Shown here piece by piece: positions 3,347 to 27,851 of a stretch of 33,263 bases of DNA. The notes beneath the pieces are model-generated. The model was given only the letters and a program-made list of their open reading frames with translations. It made no database searches and was not told the origin of the DNA. Positions within the stretch are counted from its first letter, which is position 1; each line of letters begins with the position of its first letter. Source of the stretch: a virus (taxonomy: Duplodnaviria > Heunggongvirae > Uroviricota > Caudoviricetes); the IMG/VR virus record IMGVR_UViG_2703718853_000003, positions 1 to 33,263 of that record, one strand, 5' to 3'. A program made the translations under genes and the position numbers.

Positions 3347-3618
3347 GTATTCGTATTGAAATTGGCGAACGTTATGTCGTTACCAGTGACAGCTTTCAGT
3401 TTATTCTCCACGAGAAAAAGAGAGCGGAAAGCGGTAAAAACGCCGGTCAGGAATGGCTGGCGGTGGTTGGTTATTACCCGAAATTAAGCCAGCTCGTTTC
3501 CGGCCTGATGCATCACGATATTCTGACCGGAAGCGCAAAGTCTTTTGCTGATTTAAACGCGCAGGTTGAGCAACTCAGCAAGCGTTGTTCAGAGGCTTTT
3601 GGCTCATATGGCCGTTAA
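3343..3618 (+). CDS. Early hypothetical protein (P2 orf83 position)
   Basis: 91-aa ORF, ATGA-coupled to the upstream gene. Confidence 0.5.
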   Translation: MSIRIEIGERYVVTSDSFQFILHEKKRAESGKNAGQEWLAVVGYYPKLSQLVSGLMHHDILTGSAKSFADLNAQVEQLSKRCSEAFGSYGR

Positions 3619-5728
3619 AGCCTCCGGGCGTTTTGTCCCTCCGTCAGCATTTGCCGCAGGCACCGGTAAGGCGTTTACCGGTGCTTATGCATGGAACGCG
3701 CCACGCGAGGCTGTCGGGCGCGAAAGACCCCTTACACGTGACGAGATGCGTCAGGTGCAAGGTGTTTTATCCACGATTAACCGCCTGCCTTACTTTTTGC
3801 GCTCGCTGTTTACTTCACGCTATGACTACATCCGGCGCAATAAAAGCCCGGTACACGGGTTTTATTTCCTCACATCCACTTTTCAGCGTCGTTTATGGCC
3901 GCGCATTGAGCGTGTGAATCAGCGCCATGAAATGAACACCGACGCGTCGTTGCTGTTTCTGGCAGAGCGTGACCACTATGCGCGCCTGCCGGGAATGAAT
4001 GACAAGGAGCTGAAAAAGTTTGCCGCCCGTATCTCATCGCAGCTTTTCATGATGTATGAGGAACTCAGCGATGCCTGGGTGGATGCGCATGGCGAAAAAG
4101 AATCGCTGTTTACGGATGAGGCGCAGGCTCACCTGTATGGTCATGTTGCTGGCGCTGCACGTGCTTTCAATATTTCCCCTCTCTACTGGAAAAAATACCG
4201 TAAAGGACAGATGACCACGAGGCAGGCATATTCTGCCATTGCCCGTCTGTTTAACGATGAGTGGTGGACTCATCAGCTTAAAGGCCAGCGTATGCGCTGG
4301 CATGAGGCGTTACTGATTGCTGTCGGGGAGGTCAATAAAGACCGTTCTCCTTATGCCAGTAAACATGCCATTCGTGATGTGCGTGCGCGCCGCCAGGCAA
4401 ATCTGGAATTTCTTAAATCGTGTGACCTTGAAAACAGGGAAACCGGCGAGCGCATCGACCTTATCAGTAAGGTGATGGGCAGTATTTCTAATCCTGAAAT
4501 TCGCCGGATGGAGCTGATGAACACCATTGCCGGTATTGAGCGTTACGCCGCCGCAGAGGGTGATGTGGGGATGTTTATCACGCTGACCGCGCCGTCAAAG
4601 TATCACCCGACACGTCAGGTCGGAAAAGGCGAAAGTAAAACCGTCCAGCTAAATCACGGCTGGAACGATGAGGCATTTAATCCAAAGGATGCGCAGCGTT
4701 ATCTCTGCCGTATCTGGAGCCTGATGCGCACGGCATTCAAGGATAATGACTTACAGGTCTACGGTTTGCGTGTCGTCGAGCCACACCACGACGGAACGCC
4801 GCACTGGCATATGATGCTTTTTTGTAATCCACGCCAGCGTAACCAGATTATTGAAATCATGCGTCGCTACGCGCTCAAAGAGGATGGAGACGAAAGAGGA
4901 GCTGCGCGAAACCGTTTTCAGGCAAAACACCTTAACCGGGGCGGTGCTGCGGGGTATATCGCGAAATACATCTCAAAAAACATCGATGGCTATGCACTGG
5001 ATGGTCAGCTCGATAACGACACCGGCAGGCCGCTGAAAGACACAGCCGCGGCTGTTACCGCATGGGCGTCAACGTGGCGCATACCACAATTTAAAACGGT
5101 TGGCCTGCCGACAATGGGGGCTTACCGTGAACTACGCAAATTGCCCCGCGGCGTCAGCATTGCTGATGAGTTTGACGAGCGCGTCGAGGCTGCACGCGCC
5201 GCCGCAGACAGTGGTGATTTTGCGCTGTATATCAGCGCGCAGGGCGGGGCAAATGTCCCGCGCGATTGTCAGACTGTCAGGGTCGCCCGTAGTCCGTCGG
5301 ATGACGTTAACGAGTACGAGGAAGAAGTCGAGAGAGTGGTCGGCATTTACGCGCCGCATCTCGGCGCGCGTCATATTCATATCACCAGAACGACGGACTG
5401 GCACATTGTGCCGAAAGTTCCGGTCGTTGAGCCTTTGACTTTAAAAAGCGGCATCGCCGCGCCTCGGAGTCCTGTCAATAACTGTGGAAAGCTCTCCGGT
5501 GGTGATGCTTCGTTACCGGCTCCCACACCTTCTGAGCACGCCGCAGCAGTGCTTAATCTGGTTGATGACGGTGTTATCGAATGGAATGACCCGGAGGTCG
5601 TGAGGGCGCTCAGGGGCGCATTAAAACACGGGCTGAGAACGCCAAATCGTCAGCAAGGAAACGGAAGCCCGTTAAAACCACATGAAATAGCACCGTCGGG
5701 CAGATTGAACAGGTGGGAACGATTGTAA
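3608..5728 (+). CDS. A: Replication initiation endonuclease A (rolling-circle HUH nickase)
   Basis: About 706 aa from ATG 3608. Contains HWHMMLF (HUH motif) and a YIAKYISK catalytic-tyrosine motif. The track start at 3566 overlaps the previous gene more, so the internal ATG was preferred. Confidence 0.85.
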   Translation: MAVKASGRFVPPSAFAAGTGKAFTGAYAWNAPREAVGRERPLTRDEMRQVQGVLSTINRLPYFLRSLFTSRYDYIRRNKSPVHGFYFLTSTFQRRLWPRIERVNQRHEMNTDASLLFLAERDHYARLPGMNDKELKKFAARISSQLFMMYEELSDAWVDAHGEKESLFTDEAQAHLYGHVAGAARAFNISPLYWKKYRKGQMTTRQAYSAIARLFNDEWWTHQLKGQRMRWHEALLIAVGEVNKDRSPYASKHAIRDVRARRQANLEFLKSCDLENRETGERIDLISKVMGSISNPEIRRMELMNTIAGIERYAAAEGDVGMFITLTAPSKYHPTRQVGKGESKTVQLNHGWNDEAFNPKDAQRYLCRIWSLMRTAFKDNDLQVYGLRVVEPHHDGTPHWHMMLFCNPRQRNQIIEIMRRYALKEDGDERGAARNRFQAKHLNRGGAAGYIAKYISKNIDGYALDGQLDNDTGRPLKDTAAAVTAWASTWRIPQFKTVGLPTMGAYRELRKLPRGVSIADEFDERVEAARAAADSGDFALYISAQGGANVPRDCQTVRVARSPSDDVNEYEEEVERVVGIYAPHLGARHIHITRTTDWHIVPKVPVVEPLTLKSGIAAPRSPVNNCGKLSGGDASLPAPTPSEHAAAVLNLVDDGVIEWNDPEVVRALRGALKHGLRTPNRQQGNGSPLKPHEIAPSGRLNRWERL

Positions 5729-5949
5729 ATACCCCATATAAGAGTTGTTCTTGCTCAACATGGCATCTGAACGCAAAGATAAAAGCCTGGGAGGCATACA
5801 GATAGTCCTGCTGTAAGTTAGTTGGAAAAAGATTGATTTACTTTATTACAGGAAGCCTCGATAAAATAATTCTAACGTGGATAAGGATATAAATTTATTA
5901 TAATGAATCTGTCAATATTATAATAAATGTTATTTTTAAAGAGATGAAA

Positions 5950-5985
5950 GGTAGGGTTGTTGTTTGTTGGTTTTTGTGATATAAT
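5950..5985 (+). promoter_or_regulatory. Candidate sigma70 promoter with extended -10 (TGaTATAAT) for the cargo ATPase operon
   Basis: TGATATAAT at 5977-5985 with a TTGTTG-like -35 about 18 bp upstream, inside an AT-rich intergenic region about 40 bp before the ATPase start. Confidence 0.4.
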
Positions 5986-6025
5986 ATTAAATTCATGTAA
6001 CTAGTAAATGCAAATGGAAAAAAGC

Positions 6026-7162
6026 ATGAGAATAAAATCACTGGAGACATATAACTCTCACAGTAAATTGAAAATTAATAAAATAGAATTCAAATCACTG
6101 ACCTTATTGGTTGGTGCTTCAGGTGTAGGGAAAACACAAATACTTCGTTCTATCAATAAAATAAAGTCTATCGCACATGGTGATTCCGTTAGTGGGTTTT
6201 GCTGGAACGTTGAGTTTAATGCTGAAGGTAATGATTATCAATGGTCTGGTGAGTTTGAGGCGCTGGAGGATTATGATGATTTTACTTATGGAATGTTTCA
6301 TTTTGATGATGACGACAAGGTTGAACCAAAAATTATAAAAGAAGAAGTTAAAATCAATGGTTCAATTATTATCACCAGAAGTGGCGATGATATCGTTTAT
6401 AATGACAGTAAAACAGTTAAGCTGGCTTCTACAGTTAGTATAGTTCATCACTTGCGTGAGGAAGATGATATTTCGGTTATACACAAGTCATTTTCACGAA
6501 TTGTGCAAGTTGATGATGATGAAATGCATAAGGTGTTTCCTAGAAAAAATAAAGATGCTTCAGAGGATGAAGAGCTTAGCATCAATGATATCAGAGAGAA
6601 GTCATTCTCTTTGAGTGCTAAGTTGTATTTGTGTCAAGAAAAACAACCAGTCTACTTTCATCAAATTAAAAATTCATTTGTGGAGATTTTTCCATATATT
6701 GAAGATATAAAGGTGGTTAAGGTTGATACAAGAGGGATTCCTTTCTTTGTTCATTCTGTATATGCACTCAAGGTTAAGGAAAGAGGGATTGATGAGTGGA
6801 TTTCGCACAATTCAATGTCTACCGGGATGTTGAAAACATTTGTCCAACTGGCATATCTGCATCTTAGCCCGACGGGAACTGTGTTCTTAATTGATGAGTT
6901 CGAGAATGGCTTTGGTGTTAACTGTATTAATGATATAACAGATGTGCTACTACATCATGGTAATGATGTTCAGTTTATTTTGACGAGTCATCATCCTTAT
7001 ATTATAAATAACATACCGCTTGATAACTGGAAAATTATTTCAAGGAAGGCCGGGGTTGTTGATAACTATTCTGCGGATTTTTTTAATTTAAAAGAATCCA
7101 ATCATGAGGCGTTTACTAAATTAATAAATTTAAGCGTTTATTTTGATGGTGCGGATAGATGA
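6026..7162 (+). CDS. ABC/SMC-like P-loop ATPase (AAA_15/AAA_21-like; OLD N-terminal / AriA-like), cargo gene
   Basis: Walker A GASGVGKT, ABC-signature-like SMSTGMLK, Walker B VFLIDEFENG, H-loop-like LTSHHP. The N-terminus MRIKSLE is typical of this ATPase class. Start could also be ATG 6008 or 6014. AT-rich codon usage unlike the backbone. Confidence 0.8.
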   Translation: MRIKSLETYNSHSKLKINKIEFKSLTLLVGASGVGKTQILRSINKIKSIAHGDSVSGFCWNVEFNAEGNDYQWSGEFEALEDYDDFTYGMFHFDDDDKVEPKIIKEEVKINGSIIITRSGDDIVYNDSKTVKLASTVSIVHHLREEDDISVIHKSFSRIVQVDDDEMHKVFPRKNKDASEDEELSINDIREKSFSLSAKLYLCQEKQPVYFHQIKNSFVEIFPYIEDIKVVKVDTRGIPFFVHSVYALKVKERGIDEWISHNSMSTGMLKTFVQLAYLHLSPTGTVFLIDEFENGFGVNCINDITDVLLHHGNDVQFILTSHHPYIINNIPLDNWKIISRKAGVVDNYSADFFNLKESNHEAFTKLINLSVYFDGADR

Positions 7163-7869
7163 ATTTGTATATTTTGGCTGAGGGGCGACAAACAGAGCGC
7201 AGAATCTATCCGGCATGGATAGGCGTTCTATCTCCATCTTTAAAGCAAGTTGAGTGTTTGTCTGCAATAGATAAAAACAACTATTATTTTATAAGCGGCG
7301 AGGGATATCCTCGTATGATTGATGTGACGCTTATTAATGCAATTAAAGATATACATGATAACCCTAAATTTACCGATTTTTGGGTTGTGCTAGACTCTGA
7401 AGGAGAGGATGTTGAGGCAAGGAGAGAGCTTGTTAGAAATAAGATTGATTCTTCTGGTATAGATATATCTCATTGTGAAGTAAATATAATAGTTCAAAAT
7501 CCGTGCATAGAAACGTGGGGGCTAGGGAATCGAGTCATTATTTCGCCAAATAAGTTGACTGAATCTTTTTTGGACTATTATGAGCACTATGATGTGTCAT
7601 CCAATGATCCAGAGGGTATGGGGAAGCCTCTTGCCTATGACGGATCAATTGCTAAGTATCACGAGAGTTATTTAAAAAGTATGCTTGCTTTAAGAAATGC
7701 AATGTATACGAAAAAAAATCCAGCAGCATTGATGGAGCCTTCATATTTGCAACAGCTTATATCCAGAGCTTATGCTGAGGATGGACATATACCAAGCTTT
7801 AGGCATTTTCATACGTTGGCTACTCAGCTTGAGGCTAAAGCGAAAATGTTGGAAAGCCGTGTAGCGTAG
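7159..7869 (+). CDS. Small TOPRIM-like partner protein (DUF4276/DUF4435-like, putative nuclease), cargo gene
   Basis: 236 aa; start ATG overlaps the ATPase stop (ATGA). N-terminal LYILAEG (conserved Glu) and VVLDSEGED (acidic DxE/D cluster) fit a TOPRIM-like signature. The family call is inferred from motifs only. Confidence 0.6.
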   Translation: MNLYILAEGRQTERRIYPAWIGVLSPSLKQVECLSAIDKNNYYFISGEGYPRMIDVTLINAIKDIHDNPKFTDFWVVLDSEGEDVEARRELVRNKIDSSGIDISHCEVNIIVQNPCIETWGLGNRVIISPNKLTESFLDYYEHYDVSSNDPEGMGKPLAYDGSIAKYHESYLKSMLALRNAMYTKKNPAALMEPSYLQQLISRAYAEDGHIPSFRHFHTLATQLEAKAKMLESRVA

Positions 7870-7875
7870 AATTGA

Positions 7876-7919
7876 CGACATCATGCATTTTTGTGCATGA
7901 TGTCGCATTTGTTTTTTTA
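7876..7919 (+). terminator. Rho-independent terminator after the cargo operon
   Basis: 12-bp perfect stem cgacatcatgca / tgcatgatgtcg (7876-7887 and 7894-7905), followed by a T-rich tract ending in seven T. Confidence 0.7.
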
Positions 7920-8003
7920 TGTCCTCTCTAACCAATATTGCTCTGTTCGTTAGTATTTGTAGCGGGCATGCACCTGCATTAAAACCGACCCATGAAGTGG
8001 GCG

Positions 8004-8022
8004 GGCGAGGCGGGGAAAGCAC
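8004..8022. other. cos site (19-nt cohesive end GGCGAGGCGGGGAAAGCAC)
   Basis: Matches the P2 cohesive-end sequence as I remember it, at the expected place between the old/tin region and Q. Confidence 0.6.
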
Positions 8023-8162
8023 TGCGCGCTGGCGGTGGTGCTGATTTTATTTTTTCAGCGTCTCAGCGCGTCGTGATGGCATTTAGTCGGCCTGCAGGGG
8101 CGTTGGTGTGTCTGCGGGGTGTTTTGTGCGGTGGTGAGCGTGTGAGGGCGTGATGACGGGGT

Positions 8163-8187
8163 GTAAAAAAGCCGCCCGCAGGCGGCG
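8163..8187 (-). terminator. Rho-independent terminator downstream of Q (minus strand)
   Basis: gccgcc-cgca-ggcggc hairpin at 8171-8186; on the minus strand it is followed by a six-T run (plus-strand A-run 8165-8170), immediately 3' of the Q stop. Confidence 0.6.
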
Positions 8188-8191
8188 TTGT

Positions 8192-9226
8192 TCAGTCGTT
8201 GTCAGTGTCCAGTGAGTAGTTTTTAAAGCGGATGACCTCCTGACCGAGCCAGCCGTTTATCTCGCGGATCCTGTCCTGTAACGGGATAAGCTCATTGCGG
8301 ACAAAGACCTTTGCCACTTTCTCAATATCCCCCAGTGACCCGACGTTCTCCGGCTTGCCGCCCATCAACTGAAAGGGGATGCGGTGTGCGTCCAGCAGAT
8401 CTGCGGCGCTGACTTTTTTGATATTAAAAAAATCGTCCTTCGTTGCCACTTCACTGAGCGGGATAATTTTAATGCCGTCGGCTTTCCCCTGTGGGGCATA
8501 GAGAAACAGATTTTTAAAGTTGTTGCGGCCTTTCGACTTAACCATGTTTTCGCGAAGCATTTCGATATCGTTGCGATCCTGCACGGCATCGGTGACGTAC
8601 ATGATATATCCGGCATGAGCACCGTTTTCGTAATACTTGCGGCGAAACAGCGTGGCCGACTCATTCAGCCAGGCAGAGTTAAGGGCGCTGAGATATTCCG
8701 GCAGGCCGTACAGCTCCTGATTAATATCCGGCTCCAGCAGGTGAAACACGGAGCCGGGCGTGAAAGGTGTCGGCTCGTTGAAGGACGGCACCCACCAGTA
8801 AACATCCTCCTCCACGCCACGGCGGGTATATTTTGCCGGTGAGGTTTCCAGTCTGATGACCTTACCGGTGGTGCTGTAACGCTTTTCCAGAAACGCATTA
8901 CCGAACACCAGAAAATCCAGCACAAAGCGGCTGAAATCCTGCTGAGAAAGCCACGGATGCGGGATAAATGTTGAGGCCAGAATATTACGTTTGACGTAAA
9001 TCGGTGAGCTGTGATGCACGGCAGCACGCAGGCTTTTTGCCAGACCGGTAAAGCTGACCGGTGGCTCATACCATCTGCCGTTACTGATGCACTCGACGTA
9101 ATCCAGAATGTCACGGCGGTCGAGTACCGGCACCGGCTCACCAAAGGTGAATGCCTCCATTTTCGGGGCGCTGGCGGTCATTGTTTTTGCCGCAGGTCGC
9201 GGTGTTTTCCCTTTTTTCTTGCTCAT
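8192..9226 (-). CDS. Q: Portal protein (gpQ)
   Basis: 344 aa, the length I recall for P2 Q; minus strand next to cos, directly downstream of P. Confidence 0.85.
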   Translation of the reverse strand: MSKKKGKTPRPAAKTMTASAPKMEAFTFGEPVPVLDRRDILDYVECISNGRWYEPPVSFTGLAKSLRAAVHHSSPIYVKRNILASTFIPHPWLSQQDFSRFVLDFLVFGNAFLEKRYSTTGKVIRLETSPAKYTRRGVEEDVYWWVPSFNEPTPFTPGSVFHLLEPDINQELYGLPEYLSALNSAWLNESATLFRRKYYENGAHAGYIMYVTDAVQDRNDIEMLRENMVKSKGRNNFKNLFLYAPQGKADGIKIIPLSEVATKDDFFNIKKVSAADLLDAHRIPFQLMGGKPENVGSLGDIEKVAKVFVRNELIPLQDRIREINGWLGQEVIRFKNYSLDTDND

Positions 9227-15513: not shown

Positions 15514-15939
15514 ATGAAGAAATTATCCCTTTCACTGATGCTGAACGTGTCGCTGGCGCTGATGCTGGCACTGTCCCTGATTTACCCGCAGAGCGTGGCC
15601 GTCAGTTTTGTCGCTGCCTGGGCGATTCTGGCGACGGTTATCTGTGTGGTTGCCGGTGGTGTCGGCGTGTATGCCACGGAGTATGTGCTGGAACGCTACG
15701 GGCGGGAGCTGCCGCCGGAATCGCTGGCCGTGAAGATTGTCACGTCGCTGTTTTTGCAGCCGGTGCCGTGGCGCAGACGGGCGGCGGCTCTGGTGGTGAT
15801 GGTGGCAACGTTTATCTCGCTGGTCGCTGCCGGGTGGATTTTTAGCGCGCTGATTTATCTTGTGGTGTCGCTGTTTTTCCGGCTGATACGTAAAGCCTGT
15901 CGTCAGCGTCTTGAGGGGCGGGAATTATGTCAAAGCTGA
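15514..15939 (+). CDS. lysA: Lysis regulatory membrane protein LysA
   Basis: 141 aa, very hydrophobic multi-TM protein in the P2 LysA position. Confidence 0.8.
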   Translation: MKKLSLSLMLNVSLALMLALSLIYPQSVAVSFVAAWAILATVICVVAGGVGVYATEYVLERYGRELPPESLAVKIVTSLFLQPVPWRRRAAALVVMVATFISLVAAGWIFSALIYLVVSLFFRLIRKACRQRLEGRELCQS

Positions 15940-16352
15940 TGATTGTGCTGGTCGTGTTGTTATCGCTGGCGGTGGCGGGGCTGTTTCTGGCGAAGCATGA
16001 AAACGCCAGCCTGCGCGCCTCGCTGGACAGGGTGAACAACGTCGCCAGTGAACAGCAGGTGACCATCACCATGCTGAAAAATCAGCTTCATGTTGCCCTC
16101 ACCAGAGCAGACAAAAACGAGCTGGCGCAGGTGGCACTGCGTCAGGAACTGGAAAACGCCGCGAAGCGTGAAGCTCAGCGCGAGAAAACCATCACGAGAT
16201 TACTCAATGAAAACGAAGATTTTCGCCGCTGGTACGGTGCTGACCTGCCTGATGCTGTGCGCCGGTTGCACCAGCGCCCGGCCTGCGCAGACGCCAGTGA
16301 TTGTCCACAACGCCTGCCCGAAAGTGAGTCTTTGCCCGATGCCGGGCAGTGA
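15927..16352 (+). CDS. lysB: Rz-like spanin LysB (inner-membrane subunit)
   Basis: 141 aa with an N-terminal TM segment and coiled-coil body. Confidence 0.8.
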   Translation: MSKLMIVLVVLLSLAVAGLFLAKHENASLRASLDRVNNVASEQQVTITMLKNQLHVALTRADKNELAQVALRQELENAAKREAQREKTITRLLNENEDFRRWYGADLPDAVRRLHQRPACADASDCPQRLPESESLPDAGQ

Positions 16353-16497
16353 CCCGCAGAAGAACGGCGATTTAAGTGCCGATATCCGGCTGCTTGAGAA
16401 CGCGCTGGCACGCTGTGCCAGCCAGGTAAAAATGATTAAACACTGTCAGGACGAAAACGATGCTCAAACCCGACAGCCTGCGCAGGGCGCTGACTGA
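16207..16497 (+). CDS. lysC: Rz1-like outer-membrane lipoprotein spanin LysC, embedded in the +1 frame of lysB
   Basis: 96 aa from ATG 16207 (MKTKIFAAGTVLTCLMLCAGC). Signal peptide plus lipobox LCAGC. It starts inside lysB and runs past its end. Confidence 0.75.
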   Translation: MKTKIFAAGTVLTCLMLCAGCTSARPAQTPVIVHNACPKVSLCPMPGSDPQKNGDLSADIRLLENALARCASQVKMIKHCQDENDAQTRQPAQGAD

Positions 16498-16927
16498 TGC
16501 CGTCACGGTGCTGAAAACTAACCCCGATATGCTGCGGATATTCGTGGATAACGGGAGTATTGCCTCCACACTGGCGACGTCGCTGTCATTCGAAAAGCGT
16601 TACACGCTCAATGTCATTGTGACCGACTTTACCGGTGATTTTGACCTGCTCATTGTGCCGGTGCTGGCGTGGCTGCGGGAAAATCAGCCCGACATCATGA
16701 CCACCGACGAAGGCCAGAAAAAGGGCTTCACGTTTTATGCAGACATCAACAATGACAGCAGCTTTGATATCAGCATCAGCCTGATGCTGACCGAGCGCAC
16801 GCTGGTTAGTGAGGTGGACGGCGCGCTGCATGTGAAGAATATCCCGGAACCCACGCCGCCGGAGTCGGTCACCCGCCCGATGGAGCTTTATATCAATGGC
16901 GAACTGGTGAGCAAGTGGGATGAATGA
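16460..16927 (+). CDS. R: Tail completion protein R
   Basis: 155 aa, the length I recall for P2 R. Confidence 0.8.
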   Translation: MLKPDSLRRALTDAVTVLKTNPDMLRIFVDNGSIASTLATSLSFEKRYTLNVIVTDFTGDFDLLIVPVLAWLRENQPDIMTTDEGQKKGFTFYADINNDSSFDISISLMLTERTLVSEVDGALHVKNIPEPTPPESVTRPMELYINGELVSKWDE

Positions 16928-17378
16928 GTTTAAGCGTTTTGAAGACCGGCTGACCGGACTGACTGAATCGCTGTCACCGTCAGGGCGTCGGCGACTGGCG
17001 ATAGATATTGCGAAGAAGCTGCGTCAGCGCCAGCAGCAGCGAATTAAATTACAAAAAGCCCCGGATGGTACGCCGTATGTACCGAGAAAAAACCAACCAG
17101 TACGAAATAAGAAAGGCCGGATAAAGCGGGAAATGTTTGTGAAATTACGCACTAACCGGTTTATGAAAGCAACAGGTAGCGAGAGTGCGGCGGTGGTGGA
17201 GTTTGCCAGCGGAGTACAACGAATTGCGCGAGTACATCAATTAGGGCTTAGGGATAAGCCGGGGCGTAATAGTGCTGTGGTGGAATATCCTGTTCGTGAG
17301 TTATTTGGTTTTGACAAGGAATCTATACAATTGATAGAAAGGGAGTTATTAGTGATTCTATCGAAAGATGTTATATGA
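16920..17378 (+). CDS. S: Tail completion protein S
   Basis: 152 aa in the P2 S position; the 3' end runs into AT-rich sequence. Confidence 0.8.
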   Translation: MNEFKRFEDRLTGLTESLSPSGRRRLAIDIAKKLRQRQQQRIKLQKAPDGTPYVPRKNQPVRNKKGRIKREMFVKLRTNRFMKATGSESAAVVEFASGVQRIARVHQLGLRDKPGRNSAVVEYPVRELFGFDKESIQLIERELLVILSKDVI

Positions 17379-18130
17379 GACGGGTGTTTGTGGATAAAAA
17401 GTTTTCCATTTTGAGAAAAAGAGTAAAGCATTCTCAAAAGAAAGTTATGGATTGTATTATTGCTGACCATAATGCTGATATATGTGTGTTATGCGGGAGT
17501 TCTGACGATATTACTCGTGAGCACATTATTCCTCAGTGGGCCTTTGAGTCAAATGCTGAAAAATCTTTAATTAATAAAAAGAATAATCAGTCAACTCATT
17601 ACATTAAAGCCACTGTACCAGCATGCAGAGTGTGCAATTCTGATTTGCTGGGAGTGTTTGAGTATAACCTGAAGAAATTTCTTACGGAAAAGAGGGGCGA
17701 TGAGTTAACAGATTATGAATATGATTGCATCATATGGTGGTTGCAATACATGGGCTTTAAGTTGCAATTAATGGATTTACGGACCCGCTTTCTCAGGTTT
17801 AAAGGGGGGGATTATATCCCTTTCCTTGCAAACTTCCCGGTTGCAATGTTTTGGGGGAATGTCGATACGACACCGGAGGATGTCTTCAGGATTATAAGAA
17901 AATCGCGACGCAATCTGATGTCGAAATGGAAGGATAAAAAACATAATTCTTTGATGGTTTTTGAAACATCAAACAAGAGTTTTCATTTCTTTCATAAGGT
18001 TGATGAATTTATTTTTATTGAAATGCCTCAGGTTAAGAAGGCGTTTTTCTTCTTTTTTAATAAAGAAATTGACAGCCATGATTTAGCTCATGAGGAGTGT
18101 ATGAAGATTATAGAGAAGTACTACAACTAA
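17375..18130 (+). CDS. HNH-motif protein (putative HNH endonuclease-domain moron, P2 orf30 position)
   Basis: 251 aa, AT-rich, ATGA-coupled to S. CVLCGSSDDITREHIIPQW ... CRVCNSDL matches a CxxC...(E/D)H..P...CxxCN HNH / His-Me finger pattern. Confidence 0.6.
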   Translation: MRRVFVDKKFSILRKRVKHSQKKVMDCIIADHNADICVLCGSSDDITREHIIPQWAFESNAEKSLINKKNNQSTHYIKATVPACRVCNSDLLGVFEYNLKKFLTEKRGDELTDYEYDCIIWWLQYMGFKLQLMDLRTRFLRFKGGDYIPFLANFPVAMFWGNVDTTPEDVFRIIRKSRRNLMSKWKDKKHNSLMVFETSNKSFHFFHKVDEFIFIEMPQVKKAFFFFFNKEIDSHDLAHEECMKIIEKYYN

Positions 18131-22886: not shown

Positions 22887-23414
22887 ATGCAGCATTTAAA
22901 AAATATTACGGCGGGTAATCCAAAAACGGTTGAACAATATCAATTGACAAAGGACTTTGATGTTGTCTGGTTTTTTTCTGAAGATGGTAAGAACTGGTAC
23001 GAAGAACAAAAGTATTTTGCTGATGACACGATAAAAATAGCGTACGACAAAGATAATATCATCCGCTATGTGGAAAAGGATGTGACAGCTATCAGACCGG
23101 ATGGATTAAGTATTGTTGAAGTGGCGGATATTACTGCTAACCGACGGGCGGACATTTCAGGGAACTGGATGTTTAAGGACGGCAAAGTGATTAAACGCAT
23201 TTATACGGCAGAGGAATTACAGCAGCAGGCAGAAATTCAGAAAGCCAGACTTCTTGCAGATGCTGAATCCGTGATTTTGCCGCTGGAGCGCGCGGTCAGA
23301 CTGAACATGGCAACAGATGAGGAGCGCACACGGCTGGAGGCTTGGGAACGCTACAGCGTTGTGGTCAGTCGTGTAGATCCTGCAAATCCTGAATGGCCGG
23401 AAATGCCGCAATAA
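22887..23414 (+). CDS. G: Tail fibre assembly protein G
   Basis: 175 aa, the length I recall for P2 G, directly after H. Confidence 0.85.
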
Positions 23415-23592
23415 GTTGTATGAACTCTTGTGTGAGCTTACATACCTATAGAACAGAGTAAAGCCTAATCTGACAGTCCGCTCTGTGCCAGGAGCGGACG
23501 TTACTGACATCACAATGTGTTAATCAATAGAGAGCAGGTCACCATAATGTCATGGGTATCGCTGGTGATATGATCGCAATACACGACAATTA

Positions 23593-24267
23593 TTATTTAA
23601 TGATTTTAAAAAGTTCATTGTAGCTACAACCTTTGAATATTTCGAACTGATCATGGTAATTTGAATAAGCGCTTGCCATCATTCCGATATAACTATCCCA
23701 TGATGACTCAGAAACTACCCTTTCACCACGCTCTAATTCATCAATTAAAATATAAATAATATTAAATTGTGCAACAAGAGCAGTGTAGGTGGTGATGAGA
23801 TTATTTAGAAGGTCTGAATGATTAGGTTTGATTTTCCACAAACCAAAACTATCCCGAATTGCAACTAATTCGAATCGTAAATCTTTTGACTCAGAAAGTA
23901 ACTCCCTCCCACTTGTAGTGAGATGCTTGTAGAGTATGGGGTTCTCACTTTTTATTCTTGGCTGTATAGAAATAAGTGATTGATAACATTGATGATTTAA
24001 GTCCTTTGATCGAAACATGCTGTCGATGAACAATGTAGTTCTCTCGAAAGCCTTTTCTGATTTTTTGTTTTTAATCCATTCATTTACCCTTGTTAATGCA
24101 TAAATCGCTAGTCCAAGTGTTATTGTTGAAACTGTTGCAGTAATTGTTGATGGTTCAATTTTTTTAAAAAACCAGATATCAATCCATGCAAAAGAGACTG
24201 AGCCGAGATACATAAACAACATGTGACTCGCGAAGTATTCCCAAACACCTTTTAAATAGCTTTTCAT
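23593..24267 (-). CDS. Small membrane protein (two predicted N-terminal TM helices), cargo gene of unknown function
   Basis: AT-rich minus-strand ORF. The second ATG (24267) is preceded by AAGGA; the first ATG is at 24282. Hydrophobic stretches HMLFMYLGSVSFAWIDIWFF and ITATVSTITLGLAIYAL. A TATAAT-like -10 lies just upstream on the minus strand (plus 24290-24295). Confidence 0.6.
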   Translation of the reverse strand: MKSYLKGVWEYFASHMLFMYLGSVSFAWIDIWFFKKIEPSTITATVSTITLGLAIYALTRVNEWIKNKKSEKAFERTTLFIDSMFRSKDLNHQCYQSLISIQPRIKSENPILYKHLTTSGRELLSESKDLRFELVAIRDSFGLWKIKPNHSDLLNNLITTYTALVAQFNIIYILIDELERGERVVSESSWDSYIGMMASAYSNYHDQFEIFKGCSYNELFKIIK

Positions 24268-24443
24268 GTAGATCCTTAACATTTTCTTAATTATATTTTA
24301 TGGTGGTATTTTTGTTAGTATCGGCATGGATTAGAAATAGTTGATACTTTTATGCCCTGAGAGCATGAAAACTGGAAAAGCCTTGCTCATGATATAAATA
24401 GTGTTAGTTGCCACTGCTTTGGAAGTTATCCTTTAAATGGGCT

Positions 24444-24700
24444 ATCGGAAAGCCAGACTTCTAGCAGATGCTGAATCCGTGATTTTGCCGCTGGAGCGCG
24501 CTGTCAGGCTGAATATGGCAACAGATGAGGAGCGCAGTCGACTGGAGGCATGGGAACGCTACAGCGTTCTGGTCAGTCGTGTGGATCCTGCAAATCCTGA
24601 ATGGCCGGAAATGCCGCAAGAAGTTGTATGAGCTCTGGTGTGAACTTACATATCTATGGCACAGAGTAAAGCCTAATCTGACAGTCCGCTCTGTGCCGAA
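24444..24700 (+). repeat. Degenerate direct duplicate of the 3' end of G plus its downstream sequence (G' remnant)
   Basis: About 250 bp highly similar to 23236-23490. The encoded [57 protein letters not shown] copies the G C-terminus, with the G stop changed to a sense codon. Not an independent gene. Confidence 0.8.
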
Positions 24701-24921
24701 GCTAGCAAAGCCATGGTCCTTTCGCAGCAAGTTGCGTAAATAAGGCGTTTTTATCTCTTGAAGCATTCTACAAAGCCAACTCCTCGCTCAAACAGACGTG
24801 TCTGTTCAGCAATCTGCCCGCTTGGTATCAAGGGACGCCAGTAACGCGATACCGGGTGAATTCCTTCCTTAACTGCCCTCACATCATCTTTAATAATAGT
24901 TTACCCTGATATAACGGATGA

Positions 24922-26301
24922 TCAGAAGTCAATCAGGTCATCGAATTTCTGAGGTGGCTCTTGTTTTCGAACGCTATCTCCCTGATGAATCTCCGTCTCA
25001 CTTGTTTGGTATTTTACACCAGTAATTTTATGATAAGTCATACTGTTGGTTTTCAACAGTAGTGCATCATTTTTGTCATGCGAGGATGAAAATGAACCCA
25101 TATGTCTCGGTTTTATTTGTTCCTCAACTATCAACTGAATTTCCGGAACAAAAGCATACTGGTCATCTTCGATGTGTTCATACATCTCAACATTATATCG
25201 GCGAGATTTATCTGCGGCATGCCTGACGCCGGAAGACTTATTAAACAGAACGACATTATATCCTGTCTCAGCATCCTCACCGTTGGCATCTACCTGGGTA
25301 GATTTAAAGCTGACACCATCAAGCTTAAATTTATTTCGGTCACCTAGGTAATCGGCAACCACTTGGGTGATGAGGTAATCACTGTCCTGCCTTTTTCCAA
25401 AAGTAGGAAGCGTCAACTTACGGGAAAGCGTACTGAAAAAAATCGCGCGCTCACTGGTTTTGCGAGTCTGAGGATCAAATTTACTACCTGAGCCGAAACT
25501 AATCGAGTCAAGGGCAGAAATGTCCAGCACTTTTAGCTCGCGTAACGGTATAAAACAGGCCGTTACTACAATACTGCCGACGGGCGGCCTTACTTCAGCA
25601 ATTGCCAAATTCACTGAGGTTGCACCGTAAAATACTGAAATCCCCTGTGCGTTCATACGGCCCGACCGAGCCAAAGTTGTTGGGGGAGGTCCAAAATTTT
25701 TCTCGGGATGCTCCAAGGCTTGCTTTACTTCCTCTTGGTCCTCAAAAACCCTTGCACGAAAAAGATGAACCTCATCAGTCAGAGTTTTTATCGGTGAATT
25801 ACTGTCTCTGTTTTTTAGTTTATCGATATCACTGAAAAGTGAATCCAGGAAATCATTAACTTCACGGTTAAAATATCGTGTTTCTTTCATAAGGGAGTCA
25901 GTGGCTTTACTCCAGGTATGCGCAAGCTCTCCGCTATAGTGATTTATGTGCCGATAAAGAAACCCGTCATTATACCGGATGTAGTCATAATCGTTATGCG
26001 GATTATATTCATCACAAAGAAGTTCATAAATATCTTCAGCTACGTCCCATTCGACGCCCAGTTCTCCGTAGATGACATCCTGCGCGCTATCACCGCGCCC
26101 GGAATCATAGATATCCTCATATATATCATAATAGTACTCAAAAACCTCATTCATCATCTTGAGAATATATTTGAGGTGGATGTTTTTACGCTTCCTTTTG
26201 CAGTAAGAGCAAATCTGAAAATTATTTCCAGTTTTTATTATATGCTGCATGACATATTTATCGTTCACGCATTTATGACAAATATACTTATCTTCCCACA
26301 T
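24922..26301 (-). CDS. RES-domain protein with N-terminal zinc ribbon (candidate NAD+-targeting abortive-infection effector), cargo gene
   Basis: 459 aa, AT-rich, minus strand. N-terminal CHKC-x19-CSYC zinc ribbon. RES signature LFRARV ... SGRMNAQGISVFYGATSVNLAIAEV ... DGVSFKS...GYNVVLFN at about aa 178-356 (roughly nt 25234-25770). Domain call is by motif recognition only. Confidence 0.65.
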   Translation of the reverse strand: MWEDKYICHKCVNDKYVMQHIIKTGNNFQICSYCKRKRKNIHLKYILKMMNEVFEYYYDIYEDIYDSGRGDSAQDVIYGELGVEWDVAEDIYELLCDEYNPHNDYDYIRYNDGFLYRHINHYSGELAHTWSKATDSLMKETRYFNREVNDFLDSLFSDIDKLKNRDSNSPIKTLTDEVHLFRARVFEDQEEVKQALEHPEKNFGPPPTTLARSGRMNAQGISVFYGATSVNLAIAEVRPPVGSIVVTACFIPLRELKVLDISALDSISFGSGSKFDPQTRKTSERAIFFSTLSRKLTLPTFGKRQDSDYLITQVVADYLGDRNKFKLDGVSFKSTQVDANGEDAETGYNVVLFNKSSGVRHAADKSRRYNVEMYEHIEDDQYAFVPEIQLIVEEQIKPRHMGSFSSSHDKNDALLLKTNSMTYHKITGVKYQTSETEIHQGDSVRKQEPPQKFDDLIDF

Positions 26302-26537
26302 TTTTTACTCACTCATCATCAGCTGATACAGGGTCACTTTCCTGCAATTTTATAATTAAATCAAGCATAAAAACCCTCTTCACACATTAATGCTTTCAGT
26401 GTGAAAATAATTAGTGGTGCACTGTACTGATAATAATTACGAACTTCCGCTTCTCGCTCAAAGCAGACTGTCAGATTTGATAGCGTTTGGGCTATGTAAA
26501 TTGTCAGTCGTAAAATTAGTGAGTACAAATCAGGACA

Positions 26538-26660: not shown

Positions 26661-27851
26661 ATGAGTGACTATCATCACGGCGTGCAGGTGCTGGAGATTA
26701 ACGACGGCACCCGCGTCATTTCCACCGTATCCACGGCCATTGTCGGCATGGTCTGCACGGCCAGCGATGCGGATGCGGAAACCTTCCCCCTCAATAAACC
26801 TGTGCTGATTACCAATGTGCAGAGCGCAATTGCAAAGGCCGGTAAAAAAGGCACGCTGGCGGCATCGTTGCAGGCCATCGCCGACCAGTCAAAACCGGTC
26901 ACCGTTGTCGTGCGCGTGGAAGACGGCACCGGCGACGACGAAGAAACGAAACTCGCGCAGACCGTTTCCAATATCATCGGCACCACCGACGAAAACGGTC
27001 AGTACACCGGACTGAAAGCCCTGCTGGCGGCGGAGTCGGTAACCGGTGTTAAACCGCGTATTCTCGGCGTGCCGGGACTGGACACCAAAGAGGTGGCTGT
27101 TGCACTGGCATCAGTCTGTCAGAAGCTGCGCGCTTTCGGGTATATCAGCGCATGGGGCTGTAAAACCATTTCCGAGGTGAAAGCTTACCGCCAGAATTTC
27201 AGCCAGCGTGAGCTGATGGTCATCTGGCCGGATTTCCACGCATGGGATACGGTCACCAGTACCGCCGCCACCGCGTATGCCACCGCCCGTGCGCTGGGTC
27301 TGCGCGCTAAAATCGACCAGGAGCAGGGCTGGCATAAAACGTTGTCCAATGTCGGGGTGAACGGTGTTACCGGCATCAGCGCCTCTGTATTCTGGGATTT
27401 GCAGGAGTCCGGCACCGATGCTGACCTGCTTAACGAGTCTGGCGTCACAACGCTGATTCGCCGCGACGGTTTTCGCTTCTGGGGTAACCGTACCTGCTCT
27501 GATGACCCGCTGTTCCTCTTTGAAAACTACACCCGCACCGCGCAGGTGCTGGCCGACACGATGGCTGAGGCGCACATGTGGGCGGTGGACAAGCCAATCA
27601 CCGCAACGCTGATTCGCGACATCGTTGATGGCATCAATGCCAAATTCCGAGAGCTGAAAACAAACGGCTATATCGTGGATGCGACCTGCTGGTTCAGCGA
27701 AGAATCCAACGATGCGGAAACCCTTAAGGCCGGAAAACTGTATATCGACTACGACTATACCCCGGTGCCTCCTCTTGAAAACCTGACTCTGCGCCAGCGT
27801 ATTACCGATAAATACCTGGCAAATCTGGTCACCTCGGTTAACAGCAATTAA
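26661..27851 (+). CDS. FI: Tail sheath protein FI
   Basis: 396 aa, the length I recall for P2 FI; GGAG Shine-Dalgarno upstream. Confidence 0.9.
   Translation: MSDYHHGVQVLEINDGTRVISTVSTAIVGMVCTASDADAETFPLNKPVLITNVQSAIAKAGKKGTLAASLQAIADQSKPVTVVVRVEDGTGDDEETKLAQTVSNIIGTTDENGQYTGLKALLAAESVTGVKPRILGVPGLDTKEVAVALASVCQKLRAFGYISAWGCKTISEVKAYRQNFSQRELMVIWPDFHAWDTVTSTAATAYATARALGLRAKIDQEQGWHKTLSNVGVNGVTGISASVFWDLQESGTDADLLNESGVTTLIRRDGFRFWGNRTCSDDPLFLFENYTRTAQVLADTMAEAHMWAVDKPITATLIRDIVDGINAKFRELKTNGYIVDATCWFSEESNDAETLKAGKLYIDYDYTPVPPLENLTLRQRITDKYLANLVTSVNSN

Follow-up and report, generated by a model that had tools for sequence, protein, structure and literature searches.

As described by Osterman...Sorek (Jan 2026, bioRxiv 10.64898/2026.01.28.702374), aRES proteins contain a RES domain, stand alone and reside in defence islands; members of the family are 300-600 amino acids (aa) long, combine RES with PF18870, and occur in about 4% of genomes (same preprint). 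This study concerns the gene for one such protein in a P2-like prophage, IMG/VR record IMGVR_UViG_2703718853_000003 (Duplodnaviria; Heunggongvirae; Uroviricota; Caudoviricetes), of which the whole stretch analysed (positions 1 to 33,263; 33,263 nucleotides) is referred to below as the window. The open reading frame (ORF) at 24922-26301 on the minus strand of the window encodes, with a probability of roughly 90%, a single-protein abortive-infection defence, aRES, which is carried as a moron between genes G and FI (the G-FI slot) and whose RES domain would phosphorolyse nicotinamide adenine dinucleotide (NAD+) upon infection.

The aRES proteins of E. coli UC5, E. chengduensis and K. pneumoniae each protect E. 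coli MG1655 from diverse phages, with growth arrest (bioRxiv 10.64898/2026.01.28.702374). According to the same preprint, NAD+ drops during T7 infection and is converted by aRES to nicotinamide and ADP-ribose-1''-phosphate (ADPR-1''-phosphate), and active-site mutants lose defence, with six alanine substitutions (R182A, R184A, R215A, Y225A, E236A and S334A) each abolishing it. The phage pathway NARP1 cannot rebuild NAD+ from ADPR-1''-phosphate and is therefore ineffective against aRES, which is overcome by NARP2 (the NARP1 operon plus a Macro-domain phosphatase) or by the inhibitor aRad1 (bioRxiv 10.64898/2026.01.28.702374). The underlying architecture, a Zn ribbon followed by HEPN/RES-NTD1 and RES, had been catalogued computationally and predicted to be an abortive-infection-type toxin, and the HEPN/RES-NTD1 module was also found fused to HEPN RNases (Anantharaman et al. 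2013, Biol Direct 8:15). In that study, which was purely computational, RES was predicted to act as an RNase; its activity has since turned out to be phosphorolysis of NAD+. The aRES preprint also names other defences in which a single protein depletes NAD+, DSR1/DSR2 (SIR2) and the TIR- and SEFIR-domain systems; these resemble aRES in joining sensing and an NADase effector in one polypeptide and in acting through abortive infection or growth arrest. However, the aRES effector is a RES domain of the ADP-ribosyltransferase (ART) superfamily rather than SIR2 or TIR, and it defeats NARP1 because its product is ADPR-1''-phosphate instead of ADP-ribose.

Identity and architecture of the window protein

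The window ORF, situated between G and FI in the orientation opposite to the late operons, begins with ATG and encodes 459 aa. Its GC content of 0.414, compared to 0.569 in the adjacent FI-FII tail genes and 0.507 in the window as a whole, agrees with the AT-rich minus-strand ORF that an earlier reading of the raw sequence (the original prediction) had described. The UC5 aRES (IMG gene 2729545185) is likewise a standalone protein of 459 aa with a Zn-ribbon, PF18870 and RES, and the two proteins align without gaps at 447 of 459 identical positions (97.4%), or 388 of 399 in the part printed in Supplementary Table S4 of the preprint; for the full-length comparison, the 3' end was obtained by translating the DNA printed there. 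Identity to the other two validated proteins is 75% (E. chengduensis) and 45% (K. pneumoniae). All six residues at which alanine abolishes defence (R182, R184, R215, Y225, E236 and S334) are present in the window protein at UC5 numbering. Judged by how the family is defined, the window protein has RES (PF08808), stands alone and, at 459 aa, falls within the 300-600 aa range, while PF18870 was recognised through hmmscan and family matches, the authors' own threshold being an HHsearch probability >80%; the UC5 protein is included in their final aRES list. The window aRES is thus already known, as a member of a named and experimentally characterised system whose type protein is 97.4% identical. 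The original prediction had not recognised a named defence system; the system is now called aRES, and its architecture was on record in 2013. The discovery value of the locus is consequently small, as both the name and the characterisation of aRES date from January 2026 and the window copy amounts essentially to the type protein, but the original prediction, made from raw sequence, got both a genuine defence system and its catalytic residues right.

Four regions can be distinguished along the protein. A CxxC-x19-CxxC zinc ribbon (codons 8-34, with C8, C11, C31 and C34; window 26200-26280, minus strand) is followed by HEPN/RES N-terminal domain 1 (PF18870; codons 29-147; 25861-26217, minus strand), the presumed regulatory or sensor module, which hmmscan matched with the window protein alone at E=4.2e-4 (21.1 bits, profile positions 6-127 of 131). 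The RES catalytic domain, with all six defence-required residues, spans codons about 171-361 (25219-25792, minus strand), and the Pfam profile search placed PF08808 at aa 205-361 with 53.3 bits against a cutoff of 23.2. Codons 362-459 (24925-25218, minus strand) form a conserved C-terminal beta-rich region with a disordered tail, delimited from an AlphaFold2 model and the alignment described below, which the two-domain scheme of the preprint leaves uncovered. The motifs that had been quoted from the raw sequence are all present: CHKC at 8-11 and CSYC at 31-34 in the zinc ribbon, then SGRMN at 213-217, QGISVFYGATS at 219-229, AIAEV at 233-237, GVSFKS at 329-334 and GYNVVLFN at 347-354. The Arg, Glu and Ser singled out in three of them correspond to R215, E236 and S334, three of the six residues needed for UC5 defence.

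The AlphaFold2 model (mean predicted local distance difference test score, pLDDT, of 79.2) has a Zn-ribbon and helices in its N-terminal part, an alpha/beta domain in the centre and a beta-rich C-terminal region with strands at 369-376, 382-390 and 412-425, where pLDDT reaches 84-89 in most strand-bearing blocks. The modelled fold matches the RES toxins MbcT, NatT and ParT. A phmmer search against PDB sequences returned only noise, and PADLOC-DB 2023, NCBIfam and PHROGs gave zero matches; these libraries are older than aRES or, for NCBIfam, have no specific model.

Database searching yielded 777 aRES homologues. Those listed are typically about 450 aa long and originate from a wide range of Proteobacteria and from Rothia and Mucilaginibacter, most being already annotated with both domains. 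In an alignment of 47 homologues reaching down to 30% identity, the four zinc-ribbon Cys, R182, R184, R215, Y225, E236 and N349 are invariant, S334 is conserved in at least 90%, and P386, L414 and G428 in the C-terminal region are nearly invariant. RES was matched by all 47, and PF18870 by 40 of the 47 full-length homologues at E<=0.01 (best 4.6e-11). Additionally, 782 plasmid records, mostly from Klebsiella, encode an aRES homologue.

In a lysogen carrying this prophage, aRES would be kept inactive in the uninfected cell without an antitoxin. Infection by another phage would then lead the RES domain to phosphorolyse NAD+ to nicotinamide and ADPR-1''-phosphate, which the common phage NAD+-rebuilding pathway NARP1 could not use as a substrate; the loss of NAD+ would arrest growth of the infected cell and block phage replication, and the prophage would benefit from having its lysogen shielded from competing phages. 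The steps from phosphorolysis to arrest and protection were shown for the UC5 protein, and because all of the defence-required residues are kept, we infer that the window allele acts in the same way. Those preprint experiments support the earlier proposal of a self-contained sensor-effector that depletes NAD+ on infection; of the NAD+ degradation that had been proposed, the depletion stood, while the chemistry proved to be phosphorolysis rather than simple hydrolysis. As the protein is tolerated when expressed alone, the N-terminal Zn-ribbon and HEPN/RES-NTD1, possibly together with the C-terminal beta region, probably act as the gate that senses infection and releases autoinhibition.

Several points weigh against this interpretation. 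The experimental data were obtained with the UC5 protein, from which the window allele differs by 12 substitutions (window residue first: E3K, F28V, Q29R, I60M, Y78C, L94F, L115V, H198Q, T208S, I251V, T346I and I457M), seven of them in residues 1-115. The N-terminal enrichment gives p=0.013 at boundary 115, which was chosen post hoc, and p=0.12 at the domain boundary, 160; at the nucleotide level the window and the UC5/Rac allele differ at 18 positions (overall omega about 0.5), which is not enough to say where selection has acted. The source describing aRES is a preprint that has yet to pass peer review, and no second paper on the system was found in the library searched. The PF18870 score of the window protein in the single-sequence hmmscan lies below the Pfam gathering cutoff of 27.4 bits, and the fold matches of the N-terminal model, recurrently winged-helix-like, are weak and all sub-threshold. 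On the minus strand upstream of aRES no convincing sigma-70 promoter was found, expression from the prophage being assumed. The winged-helix-like matches, together with the fusion of the NTD1 module to HEPN RNases, underlie a further idea that we regard as rather doubtful, namely that the module is a portable sensor which frees the autoinhibited effector through direct binding of a nucleic acid or protein from the phage, and that the N-terminal substitutions confer a trigger specificity unlike that of UC5. The interest that remains lies in what triggers aRES, in how a toxic NAD+ phosphorylase stays silent without an antitoxin, and in the prophage-cassette context.

Standalone status and mobility of the aRES gene

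A RES domain may also indicate the toxin of a RES-Xre type II toxin-antitoxin (TA) module, serving in prophage maintenance or persistence, with its antitoxin unannotated, lost or encoded elsewhere. Prophages commonly carry TA modules, and the domain and fold are common to the TA toxins MbcT, NatT and ParT. However, no Xre or helix-turn-helix (HTH) antitoxin ORF adjoins the window gene, nor is its product a small single-domain RES toxin of about 150-250 aa. Compared to the RES-Xre toxins MbcT (6fkg), NatT (8qnl) and P. putida Res (9r35), aRES has no antitoxin gene, is two to three times as large, with N-terminal sensor-like and C-terminal extensions, and has an activity gated by phage infection, where theirs is gated by antitoxin loss. 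The small ORFs flanking aRES contain no Pfam domain and hence no HTH or antitoxin domain. An upstream 73-aa ORF was considered as a co-inherited antitoxin and rejected: it has no Pfam match, and it cannot have been co-inherited because it crosses the boundary of the cassette described below. The TA explanation is therefore already refuted in large part, and we consider it very unlikely.

The extent of DNA inherited with aRES points the same way. The window is 97.2% identical by blastn over 24696-26469 to the locus in a Rac-like prophage, and 99.6% identical over 23476-26468 to a locus of the e14/pin type. Three E. coli contexts can be recognised: the P2-like G-FI slot (strains AHB5 and UTAK-5), an e14/pin-type prophage region adjoining pao genes (19SZHZ886Rt), and a Rac-like lambdoid prophage in which aRES has a Lit-family exclusion gene and hokD as neighbours (PF9285). 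Only window 24697-26469 is shared by all three, which comprises one gene plus flanks, in agreement with the earlier statement that no antitoxin-like gene is adjacent. aRES thus moves between prophages as a 1.77-kb one-gene cassette, and the occurrence of the same cassette in three unrelated prophage backbones provides a concrete example of P2/P4 defence-cassette shuttling.

The UC5 protein shows 100% identity to the allele in the Rac context; the window copy occupies the G-FI slot of a P2-like prophage and differs by 2 aa from the allele of the P2 and e14 contexts (WP_021563595.1). The word 'prophage' is absent from the aRES preprint, and the P2-like G-FI context is not discussed there. In E. 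coli PF9285 (locus positions 4851-8418), the allele identical to that of UC5 lies between the Lit-family exclusion gene and hokD in the Rac-like prophage, which suggests that the 'defence island' of the published UC5 protein may also be a prophage moron cluster.

More distant homologues have different neighbours: an FRG-domain protein in Rahnella, PLD and nucleotidyltransferase genes in Burkholderia, and a P2-like portal-side hotspot in Aeromonas. In three separately sampled contigs (Rahnella and metagenome; positions 4001-6903), a 51%-identical aRES is followed 84 nt downstream, on the same strand, by a gene for a 486-aa FRG-domain (PF08867) protein; the pair may represent a two-gene variant or merely adjacent defence genes. 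In Aeromonas caviae (positions 4001-5392), a 41%-identical aRES lies in a P2-like prophage on the portal side, near the Ogr/Delta, portal and terminase genes, so the family is carried by P2-like phages at more than one hotspot and in more than one genus.

The G-FI cargo slot

The window is a P2-like prophage with the genes for the integrase (1-996), the replication protein gpA (3566-5728), the tail-fibre assembly protein G (22887-23414) and the tail sheath FI (26661-27851) in place, and from the integrase through to the tail gene D region it appears to be complete. The aRES gene is moron cargo in its G-FI slot, which in P2 itself is occupied by fun(Z) (15675-17261, minus strand). What the window adds to the published description is this context, the carriage of aRES by a prophage in P2's classical Fun(Z) slot.

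The shared position raised the question, already voiced in the original prediction, of whether the window gene is an ordinary P2 Z/fun homologue; as a functional equivalent or homologue of Fun(Z), it would confer T5 exclusion or sensitivity to 5-fluorodeoxyuridine (FUdR) through the mechanism of P2's own gene. Both genes are dispensable cargo for lysogenic conversion and share a slot and an orientation opposed to the late operons, their products are of similar size (459 versus 528 aa), and Fun(Z) blocks T5. In sequence, however, the two proteins are unrelated. The best BLASTP alignment of Fun(Z) (NP_046777.1) with aRES has E=0.17 over 23 residues, Fun(Z) contains neither RES nor any other Pfam domain, and a tblastn search with aRES against 50,697 phage records, among them the P2 reference, found no homologue. 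On these comparisons Fun(Z) homology is already refuted, and a shared mechanism is extremely improbable.

The slot is delimited by a conserved 36-nt imperfect inverted repeat, located by a repeat search, with its left arm at 23467-23502 and its right arm at 26442-26477 (both given on the plus strand). Each arm contains its own hairpin, GTCCGCTC-N8-GAGCGGAC in the left arm, and the two arms bracket the cargo region 23503-26441. Homology to P2 and to P2-like prophages with other cargo, including L005 and L006, ends at 23502/23503 and resumes at 26441/26442, precisely where the arms face the cargo. The repeat was also observed in P2 (L008), in L005 and L006, and in an E. coli CU42ET-1 island (L004). 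The aRES cassette has its left junction within the loop of an arm hairpin, and its right end brings most of the right arm into non-P2 contexts. It is possible that the arms are terminators, or that they might serve as recombination substrates for cassette exchange.

Within the slot, the first element is a 980-bp cassette for an orphan protein of 229 aa (or 224 aa), followed by a 253-nt copy of the end of G and then by the aRES cassette. The 253-nt direct repeat (24445-24697, plus strand; repeat search) duplicates the 3' end of G together with the left arm at 93% identity. This second copy lies between the two cassettes and is annotated by PGAP as a truncated tail-fibre-assembly pseudogene in three of the loci compared (L001, L003 and L015). 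The scar suggests that the two cassettes were acquired one after the other, by recombination at the end of G. In UTAK-5, IS1 takes the place of the 229-aa cassette. Such an anatomy is in line with reports that defence loci are exchanged rapidly in P2 and P4 elements.

Such rearrangements are also what would be expected if aRES were an inactive or decaying passenger, a remnant of a defence cassette in a degrading prophage with no current function: the slot contains the duplicated G 3' end and G' pseudogene, the sister locus UTAK-5 has acquired IS1, and 6 of the 12 E. coli copies lie in the e14/pin-type region near pao genes (one representative examined). The gene itself has the opposite appearance. 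Complete E. coli genomes with aRES number 12 of 5,426, with a chromosomal location in every case, and all 12 copies are full-length intact ORFs with 98.7-99.9% nucleotide identity. Every catalytic and zinc-binding residue is retained, and the surrounding P2-like prophage appears complete. Decay is thus a highly improbable account of the window gene, and carriage of aRES as an intact defence gene is preferred.

The other cassette of the slot encodes a 229-aa protein (23593-24282, minus strand; 224 aa from the second Met) with a GC content of 0.336 in its gene and two hydrophobic segments near the N-terminus, at aa 21-39 and 45-64. No match to it was found in Pfam, PADLOC, PHROG or NCBIfam, and tblastn against 50,697 phage genomes gave no homologue; only 12 homologues were identified, all from Enterobacteriaceae wherever the source organism is given. 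The gene is a candidate exclusion or defence gene. It was considered as a partner of aRES and rejected, as aRES occurs alone in the Rac-like prophage of PF9285 and the 229-aa gene alone in the CU42ET-1 island; in the window the two genes also lie apart, with the duplicated G 3' fragment between them.

Additional cargo in the window prophage

The classical gpA-gpQ (old/tin) hotspot contains another defence candidate, consisting of two ORFs with GC contents of 0.34-0.41 at 6008-7162 and 7159-7869 (both plus strand). The first encodes an AAA_21 ATPase (PADLOC AbiLi, E=8e-19; Pfam AAA_21, 57 bits), and the second, which overlaps it, encodes 236 aa that match AbiLii weakly (E=8.5e-6). With this AbiL-like pair in gpA-gpQ and aRES in G-FI, the window prophage carries cargo in two hotspots.

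In addition, a 251-aa ORF of low GC content (about 0.38-0.42) is inserted among the tail and baseplate late genes at 17375-18130 (plus strand). Searches of Pfam and PADLOC gave zero matches to it, while PHROG 10503, a family of unknown function, matches it end to end (E=1.9e-178). Its location is presumably the P2 orf30 position.
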